Source: a virus
Taxonomy: Duplodnaviria; Heunggongvirae; Uroviricota; Caudoviricetes
Reading direction: 5' to 3' (one strand)
Length of the DNA: 24,813 nt
Virus record (IMG/VR): IMGVR_UViG_3300037524_001291
The notes beneath the pieces were generated by a model, which was not told the origin of the DNA, ran no database searches, and saw only the letters and a program-made list of their open reading frames with translations. Position numbers and translations under genes: made by a program. Below, piece by piece: positions 8,980 through 21,194 of this stretch (its first letter is position 1; every line of letters begins with the position of its first letter).

Positions 8980-9960
8980 TTAATCTAGAGAAAAGTTACC
9001 ATTTAAGAAAGTATCTATTATAGAAGAGTAAGAATCCAAAGTAAAACCAAATCCACAGGCGAAAGGATGACCTCCACCATTAGGGTCTATTTGTTTTGCT
9101 ATTTTTGTAAGATCTAAGTTCTCGGCTATAAGGTGATTTGACCTTCTTAGAGAGCCTCTAGTTTCATTTAGATCAATTAGTACTACAAAAAGAAGTTCCT
9201 TATTATTTTCAAAGATGTAATCTGCTGTTTCTGATCGGTAAAGTCCTCCAAAACCTATACCATAAGAACAGTTTTGTCCTTTATATGTTATGGGTTTTAC
9301 AGTTATGTTCATATACTTCATGTAATTATTTTTAATCTTTTTAAGTGTATCTACCATAGCAGTTTCAGTATCAGTTAGTTCTATACTAGGGTCAATCAGA
9401 AACCTAGCTTTCATATTTTGAATCCCTAAAGCATTCTGTAAAGCTAAGATATTTTCTATAGAATCTCTCCAAGCTATAAAGTCCTCACTTTGTCTAGACT
9501 TAGTATCCCATAAATCAGTTACAACAACTAAAGGTTTATAAGAATCTAACATTTCCTTCATTTCAGGTGTATTAGCGAGATTATATAAGTATCTAAATAC
9601 TAACATTGTAGCACTATCACCCTCTTGAATAGAAGCCCATTCAAAATCAGTACCTTCTTCTCTTCCTCTACCAAGCATTTTTTGAGAGGTATCATGATGA
9701 TCTATTAAGATTTTTTTATTGGGTAGAGTATTTAAGATATTAGCAACATCATAAGACATACACACATCAGTTACTATAATAATGGTATCCTCGTCATACT
9801 CCCTACTATTAATATAAGCTAATATTTTTTCATCTATACTTTTTCCAGTATTACAGGTCTCAGTAGAATGACCGTACCCCAACATATTAAAATATCTACA
9901 CATCAATAAATTTGAAACTACCCCATCTAAATCCCCATGCGAAAAACATTTAATTCTCAT
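8980..9960 (-). CDS. DHH family phosphoesterase with C-terminal DHHA1 (oligoribonuclease NrnB/NrnA-like)
   Basis: Motifs HGDLDG, IIVTD, IDHH, DLWD and GGGHPFACG. Confidence 0.88.
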   Translation of the reverse strand: MRIKCFSHGDLDGVVSNLLMCRYFNMLGYGHSTETCNTGKSIDEKILAYINSREYDEDTIIIVTDVCMSYDVANILNTLPNKKILIDHHDTSQKMLGRGREEGTDFEWASIQEGDSATMLVFRYLYNLANTPEMKEMLDSYKPLVVVTDLWDTKSRQSEDFIAWRDSIENILALQNALGIQNMKARFLIDPSIELTDTETAMVDTLKKIKNNYMKYMNITVKPITYKGQNCSYGIGFGGLYRSETADYIFENNKELLFVVLIDLNETRGSLRRSNHLIAENLDLTKIAKQIDPNGGGHPFACGFGFTLDSYSSIIDTFLNGNFSLD

Positions 9961-12025: not shown

Positions 12026-12766
12026 TTATAATAAGTCTTTAACTCTAGCTTTTAAATCTGATAAAGGGGCTACTTCTTTTCTTACTTTGCCATCTAATTT
12101 TGTATCTCCAAAGATTTTTTTATCTCCATCTACCAAAGCTTCTCCACATACCTGAGCATTTTCAAATATCCTAGCTTTTCCAGAGACTTCAGCATTTCCA
12201 TATACCTTGGCGTTATCATATACCTGAGCATTTCCATATACCCAAGCATTTCCATATACCCAAGCTTCTCCATATACCTGAGCATATTCATATACTTTAG
12301 CATTTCCAAATACCTGAGCTTTTCCATATATTTTAGTACTGTCATATACCCAAGCTTCTCCATATACTCTAGCATTTCCAAATACCTCAGCATTTCCAAA
12401 TACCTCAGCTTCTCCAGCTATCCAAGCTTCCCCATATACTTGAGCTTCTCCATATACCTCAGCATCCTCAAATACCTCAACAGTTCCAGATACTTTAGCT
12501 TTTCCATATACTTTAGCATTTCCAGCTACTATTACACTTCCATCCACTCGAGCATTTTCAGCTATAACAGCATTATCAAGCACTCTAGCTTTTCCACCTA
12601 CCCAACAGGTAAGAAGATGAGATAGGTTATCTTCTTTTTCTATATACCCCCCAAGTTCCCCCTTTTTTACAAACTTAAAAGACCTTAGAGCTTTTATTCT
12701 TGTTAGGGTTATTCCATTTACTTCAATTGTATCATCTTTTACAAACTCATATTTTTTATTAGTCAT
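12026..12766 (-). CDS. Hexapeptide-repeat (left-handed beta-helix) phage protein with the shared C-terminal tag
   Basis: N-terminal RIKALRSF..VKKGELGGYIEKEDNLS..CWV followed by many [GE]NA[EKQW]V[YF] hexads. Ends RKEVAPLSDLKARVKDLL. The ORF track starts at 12778; RBS GGAGTGAT favours 12766. Confidence 0.85.
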   Translation of the reverse strand: MTNKKYEFVKDDTIEVNGITLTRIKALRSFKFVKKGELGGYIEKEDNLSHLLTCWVGGKARVLDNAVIAENARVDGSVIVAGNAKVYGKAKVSGTVEVFEDAEVYGEAQVYGEAWIAGEAEVFGNAEVFGNARVYGEAWVYDSTKIYGKAQVFGNAKVYEYAQVYGEAWVYGNAWVYGNAQVYDNAKVYGNAEVSGKARIFENAQVCGEALVDGDKKIFGDTKLDGKVRKEVAPLSDLKARVKDLL

Positions 12767-12782
12767 TAGATTAATCACTCCT

Positions 12783-15097: not shown

Positions 15098-15124
15098 AAT
15101 GATAGTACTTTCTGTACTATCATT
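15098..15124 (-). terminator. Hairpin right after the micropeptide gene
   Basis: AATGATAGTAC-TTTCT-GTACTATCATT, a perfect 11-bp stem. Confidence 0.6.
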
Positions 15125-15231: not shown

Positions 15232-15705
15232 TTATTTATCTTTCAGAACAGTATCTATAGCTCTTATAACCTCTGTGAACTTAGATATGTTTGAATATTT
15301 TCTTCTAAAATTTTCTAGTTCCTTTAAAGCTTGTAAAAGTATTTGTTCATTATAGTAATCATTAGATATTGCTAAGGATATAGATACATATCTACGTGAA
15401 TTTGGCTCTATATCTCTTATACTAACAAAGGCTCTTACAGGCTCTACCTCAGTATTATTACTATCTCCCACACTTACTACCACAATGTTTCTTATCATTT
15501 GTTGAGCTTGTGTTATTCTATGTTTTTCAGCGGCTACAACATCATCCCACTCAAAACATTTATGTAGAGGAGCTTCAACATCCCTAGACTCATCCACCAC
15601 AGTCTTAGGGTTTATTTCTCCTGTTCGTTTCTCTATATCTGTTAGTACTTCTCCAACTACCTGAGCATCTGCTGGAAAGGTTTTTACTCTCCATTGAAAT
15701 ACCAC
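15232..15705 (-). CDS. Conserved phage protein (LH..FEWDD..AA...R..QA..I family), putative accessory of the RAMP/array locus
   Basis: GTG start after RBS GGGAGATGAT. Motifs PLHKCFEWDDVVAAEKHRITQAQQMIR and ALKELENFRRKY. Lies directly downstream of the array. Confidence 0.8.
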   Translation of the reverse strand: MVFQWRVKTFPADAQVVGEVLTDIEKRTGEINPKTVVDESRDVEAPLHKCFEWDDVVAAEKHRITQAQQMIRNIVVVSVGDSNNTEVEPVRAFVSIRDIEPNSRRYVSISLAISNDYYNEQILLQALKELENFRRKYSNISKFTEVIRAIDTVLKDK

Positions 15706-15723
15706 TAAATATCATCTCCCTTC

Positions 15724-16069
15724 TGAGTTGGTTATCCATACTAACCAACTCAAACCATGACTGCCATAACAAAACGCACCTTAACCCACAAGACCATGAC
15801 TGCCATACATCAACTTGCCAAAACAAAACCAACATCAACGAACCTCGACTTAACACACCTCGACTGCCTTACACCAACTTACACAGACTCAACATACATC
15901 ACAGGAACCTAACGTAACTTACCTTGACTTACCACGACTGCCACAACACATCAAAACATAACACACCAAAACCCACCCAAACCTACCAAGACTGCCTTAA
16001 CTTACCTAAACTTACCAAACCAGAACTATCCTCAACCTACCATGTACAAGAGTGTTTATACAAACACTC
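15724..16069 (-). ncRNA. Putative guide-RNA array of KKY-NN pentamers with GGCAGTC delimiters (VIPR-RNA-like), capped by hairpins
   Basis: 52 in-register 5-nt units in five segments (9, 10, 14, 12, 7). GACTGCC occurs on the + strand at 15759, 15798, 15862, 15936 and 15990, with spacings 39, 64, 74 and 54 (all 5n+4). 5' hairpin at 16050-16069 and 3' hairpin at 15724-15752. Confidence 0.8.
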
Positions 16070-16086
16070 GGTATCTTATTAGGGTA

Positions 16087-16734
16087 TTATAGACCTTCTA
16101 TTCTATACATACCAAATTGACCCGATTTTTCAGGTCTCCATTCACCTATACCACAAGAGAACCCTCCATAGTTGAGTAGATTAATAATTTGTTCAGCAGA
16201 AATAACATTTACCATATAAGTTATAGTTAATTCAGCACTCCATTCTTTGAACTCTCCTCTATAACGTAAATCAGCAGAGGTTCCTTGAAGTCTTACCATA
16301 TCTTCTCTTATATTAGGGGTTCCATGTATTTCAACAAATTCTCCTTCAATGTAAAAAGCTCCTAGAATTGATACTTTATCCTTTGACATTTTAGCTCTAT
16401 AACTAGCAGAAGCAGCGGCTAGTTTAAAGGCTATAGAAGGGAATTGAAATTTTGCACCGTTATTTATAGCTTCTTCAAAATCCTCTATAGTAAATTCTGT
16501 TGGCATTTCTGTTTTCCAATACATACTCTCAATAAAATCTCTTACAGGATTTCTTTTCTCTTTAGGTTTTTTTACTTCCTGTGTCTGTACTCCTAACATC
16601 TCTTTTTTAGCTTTCTCAGACCAGCTGTGCATTATCAGAGGAGTAACTCCAACTACTTTTACTCGAATAGTTTTCAATTGAATTCCTGGAATCTCCACTA
16701 ACATAGAACTTTCCTTTGCTTTTTTTACAGTCAT
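16087..16734 (-). CDS. Solo RAMP / Cas7-like RNA-binding protein (Vipr-like effector)
   Basis: RAMP-like motif order: beta1 IRVKVVGVTPLIMH; FQFPSIAFKLAAASA (compare the IPGSSLKG helix); and a C-terminal Gly-rich loop GGFSCGIGEWRPEKSGQFGMYRI. No other cas genes in the window. The ORF track starts at 16743; RBS GAGGTATGAT favours 16734. Confidence 0.78.
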   Translation of the reverse strand: MTVKKAKESSMLVEIPGIQLKTIRVKVVGVTPLIMHSWSEKAKKEMLGVQTQEVKKPKEKRNPVRDFIESMYWKTEMPTEFTIEDFEEAINNGAKFQFPSIAFKLAAASASYRAKMSKDKVSILGAFYIEGEFVEIHGTPNIREDMVRLQGTSADLRYRGEFKEWSAELTITYMVNVISAEQIINLLNYGGFSCGIGEWRPEKSGQFGMYRIEGL

Positions 16735-16781
16735 ACAAATCATACCTCTCTAAATTATTCTACTCAATTTATTACTTTATT

Positions 16782-16810
16782 ACTATAACATGTAAACATA
16801 ATAAAATCAA
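16782..16810 (-). promoter_or_regulatory. Sigma-A promoter of the RAMP/array operon (TTGATT-17-TATAGT, extended TG)
   Basis: Minus strand reads TTGATT ttattatgtttacatgt TATAGT. Confidence 0.65.
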
Positions 16811-16926: not shown

Positions 16927-18579
16927 TCAGCGTTTACCCTTAAGTTTATCTAGTAGTAAGTCTATAACCTTCTTAATATCTTTATCTTTTCCCATCATAT
17001 TTTGGATGTTTATAACTTCTAAGAATCTTTCTGAGAATCCAGTAGCTAGAATCTTTGTATTAGAAGCGGTATTAAACACAGCAAAATCATTCCCTAAAAG
17101 GTTGTTTAGTATTATTTTTTTGAATACTCCTTTGGAAATAAGTTTGTTTATATGAGCTTCAGGAGTACCTATCATACTTCCATTTCTATATGTTCTCTCT
17201 CCAAAAGTTAATGTATTAGTCTTTGAATCATATCCATAACAATCATTATCTGAAAGAAGTATAAGACTATCATATTTGGTATTCGTAGCTTCAATAGTAT
17301 CTAAAGCTATTTTTAATTGCGTACCACTTACATCCATACTCATTTTTATAGCTTTTACAATATCCATTACAGGAGCTTTATTAGAGATATCAACTTTTCT
17401 ACATGAGTTAGAGAATACATACAAATCCCCTACACCACATTTATAAGCGATAGCTCCTAGAACAGCAGACATATCCAAAGCTGTTACCACAGATTTATCT
17501 GATAGTTTATCATTCATAGAACCTGACCTATCTAACAGAATACAATTGATACCCTCTAAAGGGGTTACATTAGATACAGATATATCTAAGGCATCACTTA
17601 AAGCTTCTTTAAGTGAGTTTATAATTACTTTAGTAGGATATCCATCTAACTCATTATAAGCTGAATAGAATCTAAAAGGTAGTAATCTTGATTGTTTAAC
17701 CTCTTTAGGGTCTCTTAGTCTTTTACAAACTGTTTCTAGAGTTTTTTGGTCATTAAAAACATCCTTTTTATATAGGGATACTAGGTTCTTTAGTATATTT
17801 TGTAGTATATCGTCTTCAACAGCTTTAATAAGTCCAGAGTTATCCCGAGTTTTTGTTTGACCTTTTTTAACTGATTCAGTGTTAATGGTAGCTTTCCCAT
17901 CTCCTACTTTAACATTACCTTCTCTAAGTTCTTTGAAGAACTTTTCAAAGTCTTTATTTTTAGGTTTAGGTCTTAATAGTCTCATACAATCTCTTAGGGT
18001 TACATCAGAGTTATTGCTAAGACCTTTTGATAGTTTAAATTTATCATAAGACTCAAACTTTCTTTTTAGTGTTTTCCTTAACTGCATAGGTAGTGCTTCA
18101 TTTCTTTTCCCTACTATGTCAATATAGTCTGAGCTTCTTTTATCGAACATGACCATCTGAGTGGACATTATTGTTACGATATCTTTAGCTCTTTGAATGA
18201 TGTTATCAGCGTACTCATATATTCTATTTTTTCCTTTAGAGTCTATAAAATTCTTACCTAAGAATCTATCATCATTAAAGACAATAGAAAGAATATTTAG
18301 GGGATAGTCTATCATATTGCATAATCTCCCTAGTTCAGCAATCTTTAGGATGTACTCTTTATCTGACTCTGGTATTCTTTGTATTCTTTCGTATAAAGTT
18401 TTAAACTCTGATACAGCATTCTTTTTCTCATAGTAAGTGCTTTCCCCAAAGAATGAACCTAAAACTTGTGAGAATAAAGTTTCAAGGTCTGACATTTGAT
18501 GTACAGTAGTACCCTCATGATTCACAGTTGGTTTAAACATGTTCTGTAGATTTGTTACTTGTTTTTTAAAATTAGCCAT
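16927..18579 (-). CDS. TROVE domain / Ro60-like RNA-binding protein with C-terminal vWA
   Basis: TVNHEG, FFGESTYY, LRDCMRLLRPKP, ILKNL, LRDPKEVKQSRLLPFRFYSAY, MIDAS LLDRSGSM and ILLSD; 550 aa. Confidence 0.9.
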   Translation of the reverse strand: MANFKKQVTNLQNMFKPTVNHEGTTVHQMSDLETLFSQVLGSFFGESTYYEKKNAVSEFKTLYERIQRIPESDKEYILKIAELGRLCNMIDYPLNILSIVFNDDRFLGKNFIDSKGKNRIYEYADNIIQRAKDIVTIMSTQMVMFDKRSSDYIDIVGKRNEALPMQLRKTLKRKFESYDKFKLSKGLSNNSDVTLRDCMRLLRPKPKNKDFEKFFKELREGNVKVGDGKATINTESVKKGQTKTRDNSGLIKAVEDDILQNILKNLVSLYKKDVFNDQKTLETVCKRLRDPKEVKQSRLLPFRFYSAYNELDGYPTKVIINSLKEALSDALDISVSNVTPLEGINCILLDRSGSMNDKLSDKSVVTALDMSAVLGAIAYKCGVGDLYVFSNSCRKVDISNKAPVMDIVKAIKMSMDVSGTQLKIALDTIEATNTKYDSLILLSDNDCYGYDSKTNTLTFGERTYRNGSMIGTPEAHINKLISKGVFKKIILNNLLGNDFAVFNTASNTKILATGFSERFLEVINIQNMMGKDKDIKKVIDLLLDKLKGKR

Positions 18580-18628: not shown

Positions 18629-19096
18629 TTAAATTCCCTTAAAAGTAGGTGGTATATATTTATGTACATCTATACCTGACTCTTTTAGGATATTTAGAGA
18701 TTTTTCGTTAGGGTAATCTTCAGCATAGACTACTCGAACAATACCAGAACTACTAATCATTCTAGCACATAAAACACAAGGTTGAACTGTTGTATATAGA
18801 ACACTTTCTTTTATATTAGGACCACCCATATAAGCACACTGTAAGATAGCATTAGCTTCAGCATGTAAAGATTTACAAATGTCTAATCTCTCACCAGAGG
18901 GTATCCCCATCTTTTCCCTAAGACATCCACCATCATCACAATGTCTACTCCATTTAGGAGAGCCATTGTATCCAGTAGCAATTATTCTATGCTCTCTAAC
19001 AAGTACAGCACCTACATGTCTTCTAAGGCAGGTAGACCTTTTTTTAACTATTTGAGCAATCTCCATAAAATAAGAAGTCCAATCGGGTCTCTCCAT
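18629..19096 (-). CDS. dCMP deaminase (CMP/dCMP deaminase, Zn-binding)
   Basis: RPDWTSYFM, RSTCLRRHVGA, TGYNG, HAEANA and PCVLC. The ORF track starts at 19108. Confidence 0.93.
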   Translation of the reverse strand: MERPDWTSYFMEIAQIVKKRSTCLRRHVGAVLVREHRIIATGYNGSPKWSRHCDDGGCLREKMGIPSGERLDICKSLHAEANAILQCAYMGGPNIKESVLYTTVQPCVLCARMISSSGIVRVVYAEDYPNEKSLNILKESGIDVHKYIPPTFKGI

Positions 19097-19126
19097 AGAT
19101 AATCCCATCCTTATGTTTTATTTTGA

Positions 19127-19570: not shown

Positions 19571-20197
19571 TTAGTTGTATTCGATAAAATCTTCCCAAAC
19601 GGTAATAGGGTAGCTATTAACAGATCCAAATCTCTCATCATTTGTTTCGCATTTTCTAATTTCAATAGAATGGCTTCTACAATAAGCTGAGAGTTGTTTA
19701 CCTATATCCTGACATTGTTTTAATGACCAACCTTTATTGAAGACATTGTTATATTTTGCTACAGTAAAGAATTTAAGGGATTCATTTAGGGCTATTTCTA
19801 AGGTTTCATTTTCTTCCATTAATCCAAAGATTTTACGTTCGGCTTCAATAGCTCTATTATGTGCTATATGAAAAGCTCTTTCCATTATTTTATCAGGAGA
19901 GTTCCAAGCTTCTTCACACTGTATAAAATATTTACGAAACTGTCTTCCTTTTTCAGATCTTTGTATCATACATAATTCTTTAGCCATTGATAGGGTTATC
20001 TCATGATCTATACCAGGTCTCCCTCCTGTACTTTCGTTCAAAATTGACCGAAAGTCCTTACCCTCTGTAAAACCAAACTCACACATACGTGGAAACCAAT
20101 GTCTATATTCTGTAGATATCTCAAGTGCTTCATGTAATTCTCTCCCATTTACGGTAGGTTTTTCTCCCTCATACTTAACCATTATAAATTCTTCCAT
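19571..20197 (-). CDS. AntA/AntB-family phage antirepressor-like protein
   Basis: VNGRELHEALE..T.Y..WF.RM.E.GF.EG.DF, GGRP, MAKELCMIQRSEKGRQFRKYFI.CE.AWN. The ORF track starts at 20212. Confidence 0.88.
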   Translation of the reverse strand: MEEFIMVKYEGEKPTVNGRELHEALEISTEYRHWFPRMCEFGFTEGKDFRSILNESTGGRPGIDHEITLSMAKELCMIQRSEKGRQFRKYFIQCEEAWNSPDKIMERAFHIAHNRAIEAERKIFGLMEENETLEIALNESLKFFTVAKYNNVFNKGWSLKQCQDIGKQLSAYCRSHSIEIRKCETNDERFGSVNSYPITVWEDFIEYN

Positions 20198-20307
20198 ATG
20201 ACCCATCCCCATATATAATATTTCTCTTCTTACGTAAAAAGAGTATCACTATCTTATTATATTCCTCTTACAAATACTAGAGATTAGGTAATTTATGATA
20301 GGAGAAT

Positions 20308-20360: not shown

Positions 20361-21194
20361 CTAACTCATAGTTTTTATATATAAACTCTCTTCAACATAT
20401 CCAACTTTTTGGTCTTTTAAACATTTAAAACTACTTTTTCCACTTGACACATACACATGCCTAGTATAAATATCTGTTGGAACTGTATATGTATTGTTAA
20501 TTTCAGATCTTCTACCATCAAAGCTAAAAATATAATTTGATTTCAGCTGTCTTAAATAATTCCAAAATTTATCATAATCAATCTTACCAAAATACATACC
20601 TTTTGTATTTGCGTAAGGTGGGTCTAAATAAACAAAATCATTAATGTTAGTTCTTATATCACTATAATCTCTACAAATAAACTCAACATTGTACTTATTT
20701 AACCTACTACTCCAATCGTTTATTATTGTCATTAAGGTGTTTGGATTAATACCACCCCTAGAAAAGTGCAGTGAAGTATTAAATTCCCCCTTGGAATTGT
20801 ATCTTATTAGTCCATTTACACATGTCCTACTAAGGAATAGAAAATCACTAGGGTATCTCATCTGATTAAATCTTTTTCTAATTAAGTAGAAAAACTCTTT
20901 TCGCCTTTCTATATCCTCATCTTTGTTTAATTCTATCCAAAATAAATTATACTTTTCGTATAACTCTTGTGGATTTTCTTTTATTCTATTCCACAGACTT
21001 ATTAAATCATTATTAATATCGGAACAAATGTATTTTTTTACTTTAATATCCGAGTGTAATAGATTAAATAAGACACTTGCTCCACCAACAAAGGGTTCAT
21101 AATATATATCAATTTCTTTTGGAAATAAGTTTATAATATAATCAGCTTGACTTCTTTTACTACCACTCCATTTTATTACAGGTTGTAATTTCAT
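20361..21194 (-). CDS. dam: DNA adenine methyltransferase, Dam/D12 class
   Basis: KWSGSKR, motif I YYEPFVGGASV, SDIN, NGLIRYNSKGEFN and motif IV YLDPPY. Confidence 0.9.
   Translation of the reverse strand: MKLQPVIKWSGSKRSQADYIINLFPKEIDIYYEPFVGGASVLFNLLHSDIKVKKYICSDINNDLISLWNRIKENPQELYEKYNLFWIELNKDEDIERRKEFFYLIRKRFNQMRYPSDFLFLSRTCVNGLIRYNSKGEFNTSLHFSRGGINPNTLMTIINDWSSRLNKYNVEFICRDYSDIRTNINDFVYLDPPYANTKGMYFGKIDYDKFWNYLRQLKSNYIFSFDGRRSEINNTYTVPTDIYTRHVYVSSGKSSFKCLKDQKVGYVEESLYIKTMS

Follow-up and report, generated by a model that had tools for sequence, protein, structure and literature searches.

VIPR systems (short for Viral Interference Programmable Repeat), described in 2026 preprints (bioRxiv 10.64898/2026.04.26.720920,.720927 and 10.64898/2026.10.15.759431), consist of a RAMP protein, Vipr, together with guide RNAs (vrRNAs) in which YNNGG is repeated 9-16 times and, as a rule, a single accessory vap gene, and are found mostly in phages and proviruses. 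According to these preprints, one Vipr protomer is bound per repeat; the GGY triplet is sequestered, the NN pair reads double-stranded DNA, skipping a base in every unit, and transcription is silenced. For the SUSP1 system, perturbation of the GGY motifs was reported to abolish silencing (VIPR preprints), and cryo-electron microscopy assigned each position of the triplet to a pair of residues: H17 and D177 contact G1, which is read by hydrogen bonds; R138 and W178 contact G2, which is held by stacking and a salt bridge; and R179 and C173 contact Y3, in a pocket that excludes purines (bioRxiv.720927). Seven VIPR types are all described as built on the same pentamer logic, with targets for other types found under the same rule, and the legend of fig. 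S18 (bioRxiv 10.64898/2026.04.26.720920) refers to 'staggered arrays', in which vrRNAs come from '1 nt overlapping positions'. Here we describe a candidate VIPR locus on the minus strand of a 24,813-nucleotide (nt) stretch of Caudoviricetes DNA (IMG/VR virus record IMGVR_UViG_3300037524_001291); this 24.8-kb stretch, part of a longer contig of about 98-162 kb (GCA_025491015.1, JAOQIA010000032.1), is called the window below, and all window-wide statements refer to it.

The reading that we favour, with a probability of roughly 0.88, is that a phage's complete staggered-array VIPR system lies here, transcribed in the order vipr, five vrRNAs, accessory gene. The initial annotation, made from the sequence alone, had proposed a minus-strand unit in the order promoter, 215-amino-acid (aa) protein, array, 157-aa protein, and had likened it to phage VIPR systems. 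All of these parts were found at or near the positions it gave, all on the minus strand, and the systems it named do exist, in the preprints cited above, with a solved SUSP1 Vipr structure to which the 215-aa protein is homologous. Reading along the minus strand, a promoter-like site is followed by vipr, the array and the accessory gene, and a TROVE gene and a terminator-like hairpin lie upstream. The components of the VIPR module are as follows.

16087..16734, minus strand: vipr, encoding a 215-aa stand-alone RAMP (Cas7-like) protein, assigned from homology to PDB 36pp, the fold of its model and a match to phrog_4652
16050..16069, minus strand: weak hairpin of 8 bp, after the vipr stop codon and before the first unit (-8.9 kcal/mol, z -1.9)
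15992..16041, minus strand: vrRNA 1, 10 units, ending in GGCAG, from the unit parse
15938..15992, minus strand: vrRNA 2, 11 units, beginning on the G shared with the preceding GGCAG (54 nt from the previous junction)
15864..15938, minus strand: vrRNA 3, 15 units (junction spacing 74 nt)
15800..15864, minus strand: vrRNA 4, 13 units (junction spacing 64 nt)
15761..15800, minus strand: vrRNA 5, 8 units (junction spacing 39 nt)
15722..15754, minus strand: stable 13-bp hairpin closing the array (-17.5 kcal/mol, z -3.4, with 0 of 200 shuffles folding as well)
15232..15705, minus strand: accessory (vap-like) gene, encoding a 157-aa FEWDD-family protein, assigned from a match to phrog_15946 and from its conservation as a partner

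The 215-aa product matched the 'SUSP1 Vipr protein' of PDB 36pp with an E-value of 3.4e-7 as a single sequence and of 6.8e-10 as a 27-sequence profile, the match spanning the segment from the thumb to the G-loop (CGIGEWRP against CGVGDWRP); no Pfam family was found for it. The motifs quoted as RAMP-like in the initial annotation (VVGVTPLIMH, FPSIAFK and a Gly-rich loop) are present in the 215-aa open reading frame (ORF). A 218-aa form is also open from an ATG at 16743; the public gene call is the 215-aa form, found on a 98-kb contig of an NCBI assembly and on a second contig of about 162 kb. When an AlphaFold model of the protein (predicted local distance difference test score, pLDDT, 85; predicted template modelling score, pTM, 0.80) was searched with Foldseek, the top matches were all Csm3/Cas7 proteins (type III-A Csm3, type VII Cas7 and Cas7-11; best E-value 4e-5), and alignment of the model to Csm3 with VIA-align gave a Z of 10.2 and a root-mean-square deviation of 3.6 over 154 residues. 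The SUSP1 triplet-contact residues H17, R138, C173, D177, W178 and R179 align to H36, R159, C194, E198, W199 and R200 of the present protein, each of which, across 27 relatives, shows no variation or is conserved to 90% or more. By homology and by modelled fold, the 215-aa protein is a Vipr homologue with a predicted Cas7/Csm3 RAMP fold, in agreement with its original designation as RAMP/Cas7-like, and by alignment it keeps the residues with which SUSP1 Vipr holds the repeat triplet. In a large protein collection, this Vipr has more than 7,900 relatives.

Between vipr and the accessory gene lies a gap of 381 nt without a credible coding frame, in which the repeat units span 16041-15761; the sense strand of the array carries 5-8 stop codons in each frame. 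The array was parsed without an indel into 57 in-phase pentamers, falling into five segments of 10, 11, 15, 13 and 8 units. At the first position of the triplet, G was present in 50 units (88%) and T in 7; at the second, there were 27 G, 29 T and one A; at the third, a pyrimidine was present in 56 units (98%), and positions 4 and 5 were variable. In all units but one, G occupied position 1 and/or position 2. Each segment closes with GGCAG, the last G of which serves as the first base of the next segment (GTCNN); GGCAGTC occurs in five copies at spacings of 54, 74, 64 and 39 nt, all 4 modulo 5, and nowhere else in the window. Likewise, runs of KKY-NN units (K, G or T; Y, pyrimidine) of 15, 13, 8 and 8 units were restricted to the array; elsewhere there was no run of at least 6 on either strand, and in 50 shuffles the runs reached 5 units at most. 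No structure is predicted for the guides.

Together these data identify the array as five staggered guides of 8-15 units, joined by a 4-nt GGCA and shifted in register by one base. Because the junction is 4 nt long, neighbouring guides overlap by 1 nt, and the array corresponds to the published staggered arrays. The relaxed KKY triplet and the 5-nt periodic units of the initial annotation are borne out by the parse; the single continuous protein coat that it envisaged gives way to five separate guides joined by GGCA. It had also placed hairpins at both ends of the array, of which the 3' hairpin is stable and the 5' hairpin is present but weak. The latter is missing in most relatives, whose arrays begin directly after the vipr stop codon. 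After the 3' hairpin there is no T-run, and the next features are the ribosome-binding site of the accessory gene and its GTG start. At triplet position 2, G and U alternated in 31 of 43 neighbour pairs (15761-16041) as against 23 expected (permutation p ~0.01), and this alternation accounts for a period-10 signal seen with TRF and by autocorrelation; it may have arisen by chance, the two closest relatives being without it and some others showing it weakly.

The locus was compared with 80 related IMG/VR viral-contig loci, 70 of which could be parsed into in-phase units. In almost all of the 80, the strongest 5-nt periodicity sits between vipr and the FEWDD gene, and a FEWDD homologue was present in 76, usually directly after the array. 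The pairing of a 5-periodic array with a FEWDD gene beside Vipr homologues, put forward initially as a point for comparison, is found in nearly all of these loci; the accessory gene, taken then as something that this copy carries, is present as described and is a conserved, normal partner in this Vipr clade, not peculiar to this copy. The vipr-array-FEWDD module is conserved across thousands of relatives. In the relatives' arrays, the junctions are GGCA/GGY, mostly in register, with 9-15 units per guide. In the two closest relatives, both metagenomic (69% and 64% identity), the units follow the same relaxed G-K-Y pattern and the junctions read GGCAGTY, but the NN differ; the array of one of them has 16 junctions. 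Since these two share it, the relaxed G-[G/T]-Y triplet characterises a subclade and is not decay of one copy. Comparison of relaxed-code with strict-code Vipr sequences yielded many lineage-specific differences, none of them in the G-loop core, and did not single out what determines the relaxed position 2. The array of the closest relative (L095:1977-2076) holds a run of N, a scaffold gap, which suggests that assemblies break at low-complexity arrays of this kind and that metagenomic contigs contain too few of them.

The GTG start of the accessory gene is backed by homologues beginning MVFQW or MIYKW. Its product is acidic (isoelectric point 5.5; family median 5.3), and the family profile matched 14,049 cluster representatives, nearly all of them stand-alone proteins of 145-245 aa. 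No Pfam family and no PDB sequence match was found for the protein, and its model (pLDDT 91.6) matched only three uncharacterised viral models; among solved folds none matched, the Foldseek E-values being at least 0.76 and the VIA-align Z at most 5, over a C-terminal helical hairpin only. The FEWDD protein is unrelated to vap1 of the SUSP1-type felixounavirus (BLASTP E-value 52; hhalign probability 0.2%); its homologues include gp44 of Gordonia phage Pipp and gp50 of Mycobacterium phage Donkeykong. Our best guess is that it acts as a helper of silencing or assembly, not as a nuclease. In one homologue, P0130, the gene call begins inside the upstream array, producing a spurious Gly/Arg/Trp-rich N-terminal extension of 55 residues; run-through gene calls of this sort may be common in the family.

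Among the closest described systems is staggered-array VIPR. It shares with the present locus a stand-alone Vipr, pentamer-coded guides that overlap their neighbours by 1 nt, each ending where the following one begins, a single small accessory gene, carriage by phages, and the absence of cas genes and of a CRISPR array. The difference lies in the code, which in that source is GGY with GGCA/GGY junctions and here is G-[G/U]-Y with GGCA/GUC. In the notation of the preprint, the unit here becomes YNNGK; its methods name NNNGG, YNNNG and NNNNG as alternatives, YNNGK not being one of them, and its figure logos may still cover YNNGK. The SUSP1 system (type II, from an Escherichia phage; PDB 36pp) likewise has a homologous Vipr with conserved triplet contacts, pentamer guides whose published length of 9-16 units is comparable with the 8-15 here and, presumably, a filament with one protomer per unit. 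Its vrRNAs are separate, ~100 nt long and provided with a 3' tail containing a pseudoknot, whereas here the guides abut and have no tail; and in the SUSP1-type felixounavirus Escherichia phage HK3 the order is vipr, vap1, array, whereas here the array lies between the two genes.

Two named phages carry the same Vipr clade, Pipp in gp42-gp44 and Donkeykong in gp48-gp50 (40% and 33% identity, respectively), along with the same accessory family (E-value 2e-27; hhalign probability 99.5%). They differ from the present locus in having the canonical GGY code and GGCAGGC junctions and in being high-GC temperate phages, with the module near the integrase or immunity region; in Donkeykong, moreover, the array is upstream of vipr, whereas here it is downstream. 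In both phages the array is annotated as a hypothetical protein: Pipp gp43 (MN234179.1, L081:3123-3392) and Donkeykong gp48 (NC_051648.1, L097:1007-1393) are GGY-NN vrRNA arrays with GGCAGGC junctions. Both arrays adjoin Vipr and FEWDD homologues, the order in Donkeykong being array, vipr, accessory gene.

More distantly, Vipr shares with the Cas7/Csm3 proteins of type III and type VII systems an RRM core, a glycine-rich loop and a thumb (Z ~10), at a sequence identity of just 8-22%. Cas7/Csm3 backbones also polymerise along guide RNA at a fixed period, which for Cas7 is 6 nt on an arbitrary spacer and here is 5 nt with a conserved triplet. CRISPR effectors are accompanied by other cas genes and a CRISPR array, whereas no Cas10, Cas5, Cas6, Cas1 or CRISPR repeat was found in the window. 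No ORF of at least 100 aa in the window matched a Pfam cas family, and no CRISPR-like repeats were detected across its 24.8 kb, as the initial annotation had noted; with no other cas genes and no repeat-spacer array in the window, the locus does not belong to class 1 CRISPR-Cas.

By homology with SUSP1, one Vipr protomer would bind each pentamer, and the protomers would polymerise into a helical filament in which the triplet is hidden and the NN pairs are displayed. On the same analogy, the filament would read double-stranded DNA, passing over a target base in each unit, and would silence a competitor's transcription, that competitor being in all likelihood a rival phage, prophage or satellite. 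We reason that the break in register at GGCA/GUY would end one filament and start the next, giving rise to guides of 8-15 units. Tolerance of U at the second position can be rationalised in a similar manner; because the SUSP1 contact at that position consists of stacking and a salt bridge, as opposed to the hydrogen bonds at position 1 and the pyrimidine pocket at position 3, the base held there could be U.

Several observations weigh against the reading of the locus as a complete VIPR system. The frequency of G at triplet position 2, 0.45-0.47, is the lowest of the loci compared (0.64-1.00 in the 70 parsed relatives); the G-loop of Vipr has E198 in place of SUSP1 D177; a GGCA junction is missing upstream of the first guide; and no natural target above chance was found, in scans of viral, genome and metagenome collections that required exact matches, allowed no mismatches and were thus of low power. 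With the exact 1-nt-skip pattern, guide 3 had no match in viral contigs, and guide 4 none in viral, genome or metagenome contigs. Guide 2 had none in viral or metagenome contigs and 2 in unrelated metagenome-assembled genomes (genome contigs), about the number due to chance, and the 9 viral matches of guide 1, likewise about chance, fell in A-rich stretches coding for lysine and glutamate, in which the skipped base was not at the wobble position. When 8-unit seeds of guides 3 and 4 were extended, 9 and 14 matches were obtained, none extending beyond chance; the best extension, 22 of 26, had a stop codon in the NNx frame. Searches of the window for self-targets with skips of 0-3 were at chance level for skips 0-2, and skip 3 matched the array itself; the lack of a self-target under the 1-nt-skip rule fits a VIPR system, the preprint (bioRxiv 10.64898/2026.04.26.720920) reporting the same for other systems. 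Lastly, 266 guides from the relatives were searched against ~0.5 Mb of related loci, a very small target set, in which skip 1 showed no clear excess; 27 matches of at least 0.85 were found for skip 1 as against 16-19 for the other skips, none of them convincing.

The depressed frequency of G at position 2, taken with the lack of a target in these searches and with the loss of SUSP1 silencing upon perturbation of GGY, would also fit a VIPR locus whose array is eroding, such that the GTT and TGT triplets are decayed GGY and some or all guides no longer load onto Vipr. We regard this as unlikely, given that positions 1 and 3 have held at 88% G and 98% pyrimidine, that at least one G remains at positions 1-2 in all units but one, that every junction spacing preserves the register, and that both ORFs are intact; furthermore, the same relaxed code occurs in the two closest relatives with different NN and up to 16 junctions, which points to selection for the relaxed form. 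The absence of a target could alternatively mean that this is a VIPR-family ribonucleoprotein whose target is not double-stranded DNA read at a 1-nt skip but, for example, RNA or DNA at another skip length, or that it has a decoy or regulatory role. Such a divergence would be in keeping with the low identity to SUSP1 Vipr outside the C-terminal 60 residues, with an accessory protein unrelated to SUSP1-type vap1, with staggered arrays that lack the 3' pseudoknot tail, and with the failure of skip 1 to gain a clear advantage over skips 0, 2 and 3 in the search with 266 guides. It is nonetheless less probable still than erosion: the RNA-contact residues are conserved, the preprint gives the same pentamer logic for all seven types and targets under the same rule in other types, and the target searches that favour it were low in power, being either exact-match or confined to a very small target set.

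That the G/T-rich region is not a guide array at all, and is instead repetitive coding sequence or a Y-RNA-like partner of the TROVE/Ro60 protein, would accord with the GenBank annotation of equivalent regions as protein genes (Pipp gp43 and Donkeykong gp48) and with the TROVE protein encoded directly upstream. We consider this highly improbable. A period of 5 nt cannot be reconciled with codons, each of the three sense frames is interrupted by 5-8 stops, the array accompanies vipr and the FEWDD gene in loci without a TROVE gene, and the guides, in contrast to Y RNAs, have no predicted structure and no Rfam match.

Read as a complete staggered-array VIPR system, the locus belongs to a kind that is already known and reveals no new one; what is worth recording is the relaxed triplet, the GGCA/GUY junction and the large accessory family. 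VIPR itself is a newly described form of RNA-guided DNA recognition and has been proposed as an ancestor of CRISPR effectors, and the locus adds to it a well-defined example in a large, low-GC phage. The staggered-array clade with a FEWDD gene is very large, Vipr having >7,900 relatives and the accessory family ~14,000 cluster representatives, and VIPR arrays stand at present annotated as protein genes in public phage records. The array also amounts to a natural experiment on the code, in which U is tolerated at position 2 and positions 1 and 3 are fixed, in agreement with the base-specific contacts in the SUSP1 structure. A more specific proposal, which we put forward only tentatively and consider rather doubtful as a whole, is that a functional VIPR subclade comprises the window and its two closest relatives, in which U or G is accepted at position 2, guides are joined at GGCA/GUY, and the abundant acidic FEWDD protein, of no known fold, acts by a step undescribed for VIPR; if true, the GGY rule of the preprints would become less strict, and a new effector or assembly factor would be indicated.

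The window bears the marks of a phage, having 7 tRNA genes, PHROG matches and relatives on viral contigs; no close phage relative was found by DNA search or via the TROVE protein. The locus itself has a GC content of 32% and is the most AT-rich of the loci compared. The elements surrounding the VIPR module are as follows.

16782..16810, minus strand: promoter-like site upstream of vipr (TTGATT-17 nt-TATAGT with extended TG; 9 of 12 matches in a consensus scan)
16086..16115, minus strand: best promoter-like match of the region (TTGGTA-18 nt-TATAAT; 10 of 12 matches), overlapping the vipr stop codon
16861-16834, minus strand: terminator-like hairpin followed by a T-run, behind the TROVE gene
16927-18579, minus strand: TROVE/Ro60-like gene with a vWA domain, directly upstream of the VIPR module

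The sequence named in the initial annotation as the promoter, 16782-16810, is present; because the number of promoter-like matches in the region does not exceed chance (10 as against 8.2 expected from shuffles), a promoter at this site is plausible only. Judging from its sequence, the match at 16086-16115 could be a promoter of the array's own. The TROVE terminator said to insulate the unit upstream corresponds to the hairpin and T-run at 16861-16834. The TROVE gene and the VIPR module are probably independent of each other, since related VIPR loci are found without a TROVE gene; in Rfam searches of the window, only tRNAs reached threshold, with no Y-RNA or other family.

An 11-bp perfect hairpin at 15098-15124, downstream of both the accessory gene and a tiny ORF rich in Gly and Lys, could be the terminator of the VIPR transcription unit. 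Most of the remaining ORFs in the window are without a Pfam family. Other phage genes, all on the minus strand, encode a DHH/DHHA1 phosphoesterase (8980-9960), a dCMP deaminase (18629-19108), an AntA/AntB antirepressor-domain protein (19571-20212) and a D12-class N6-adenine DNA methyltransferase (20361-21194). A further repetitive region, ~22 tandem copies of an 18-nt unit at 12055-12630 (minus strand), lies within the ORF at 12026-12778 and encodes a beta-solenoid, with Pfam matches to the YdcK repeat and to bactofilin.

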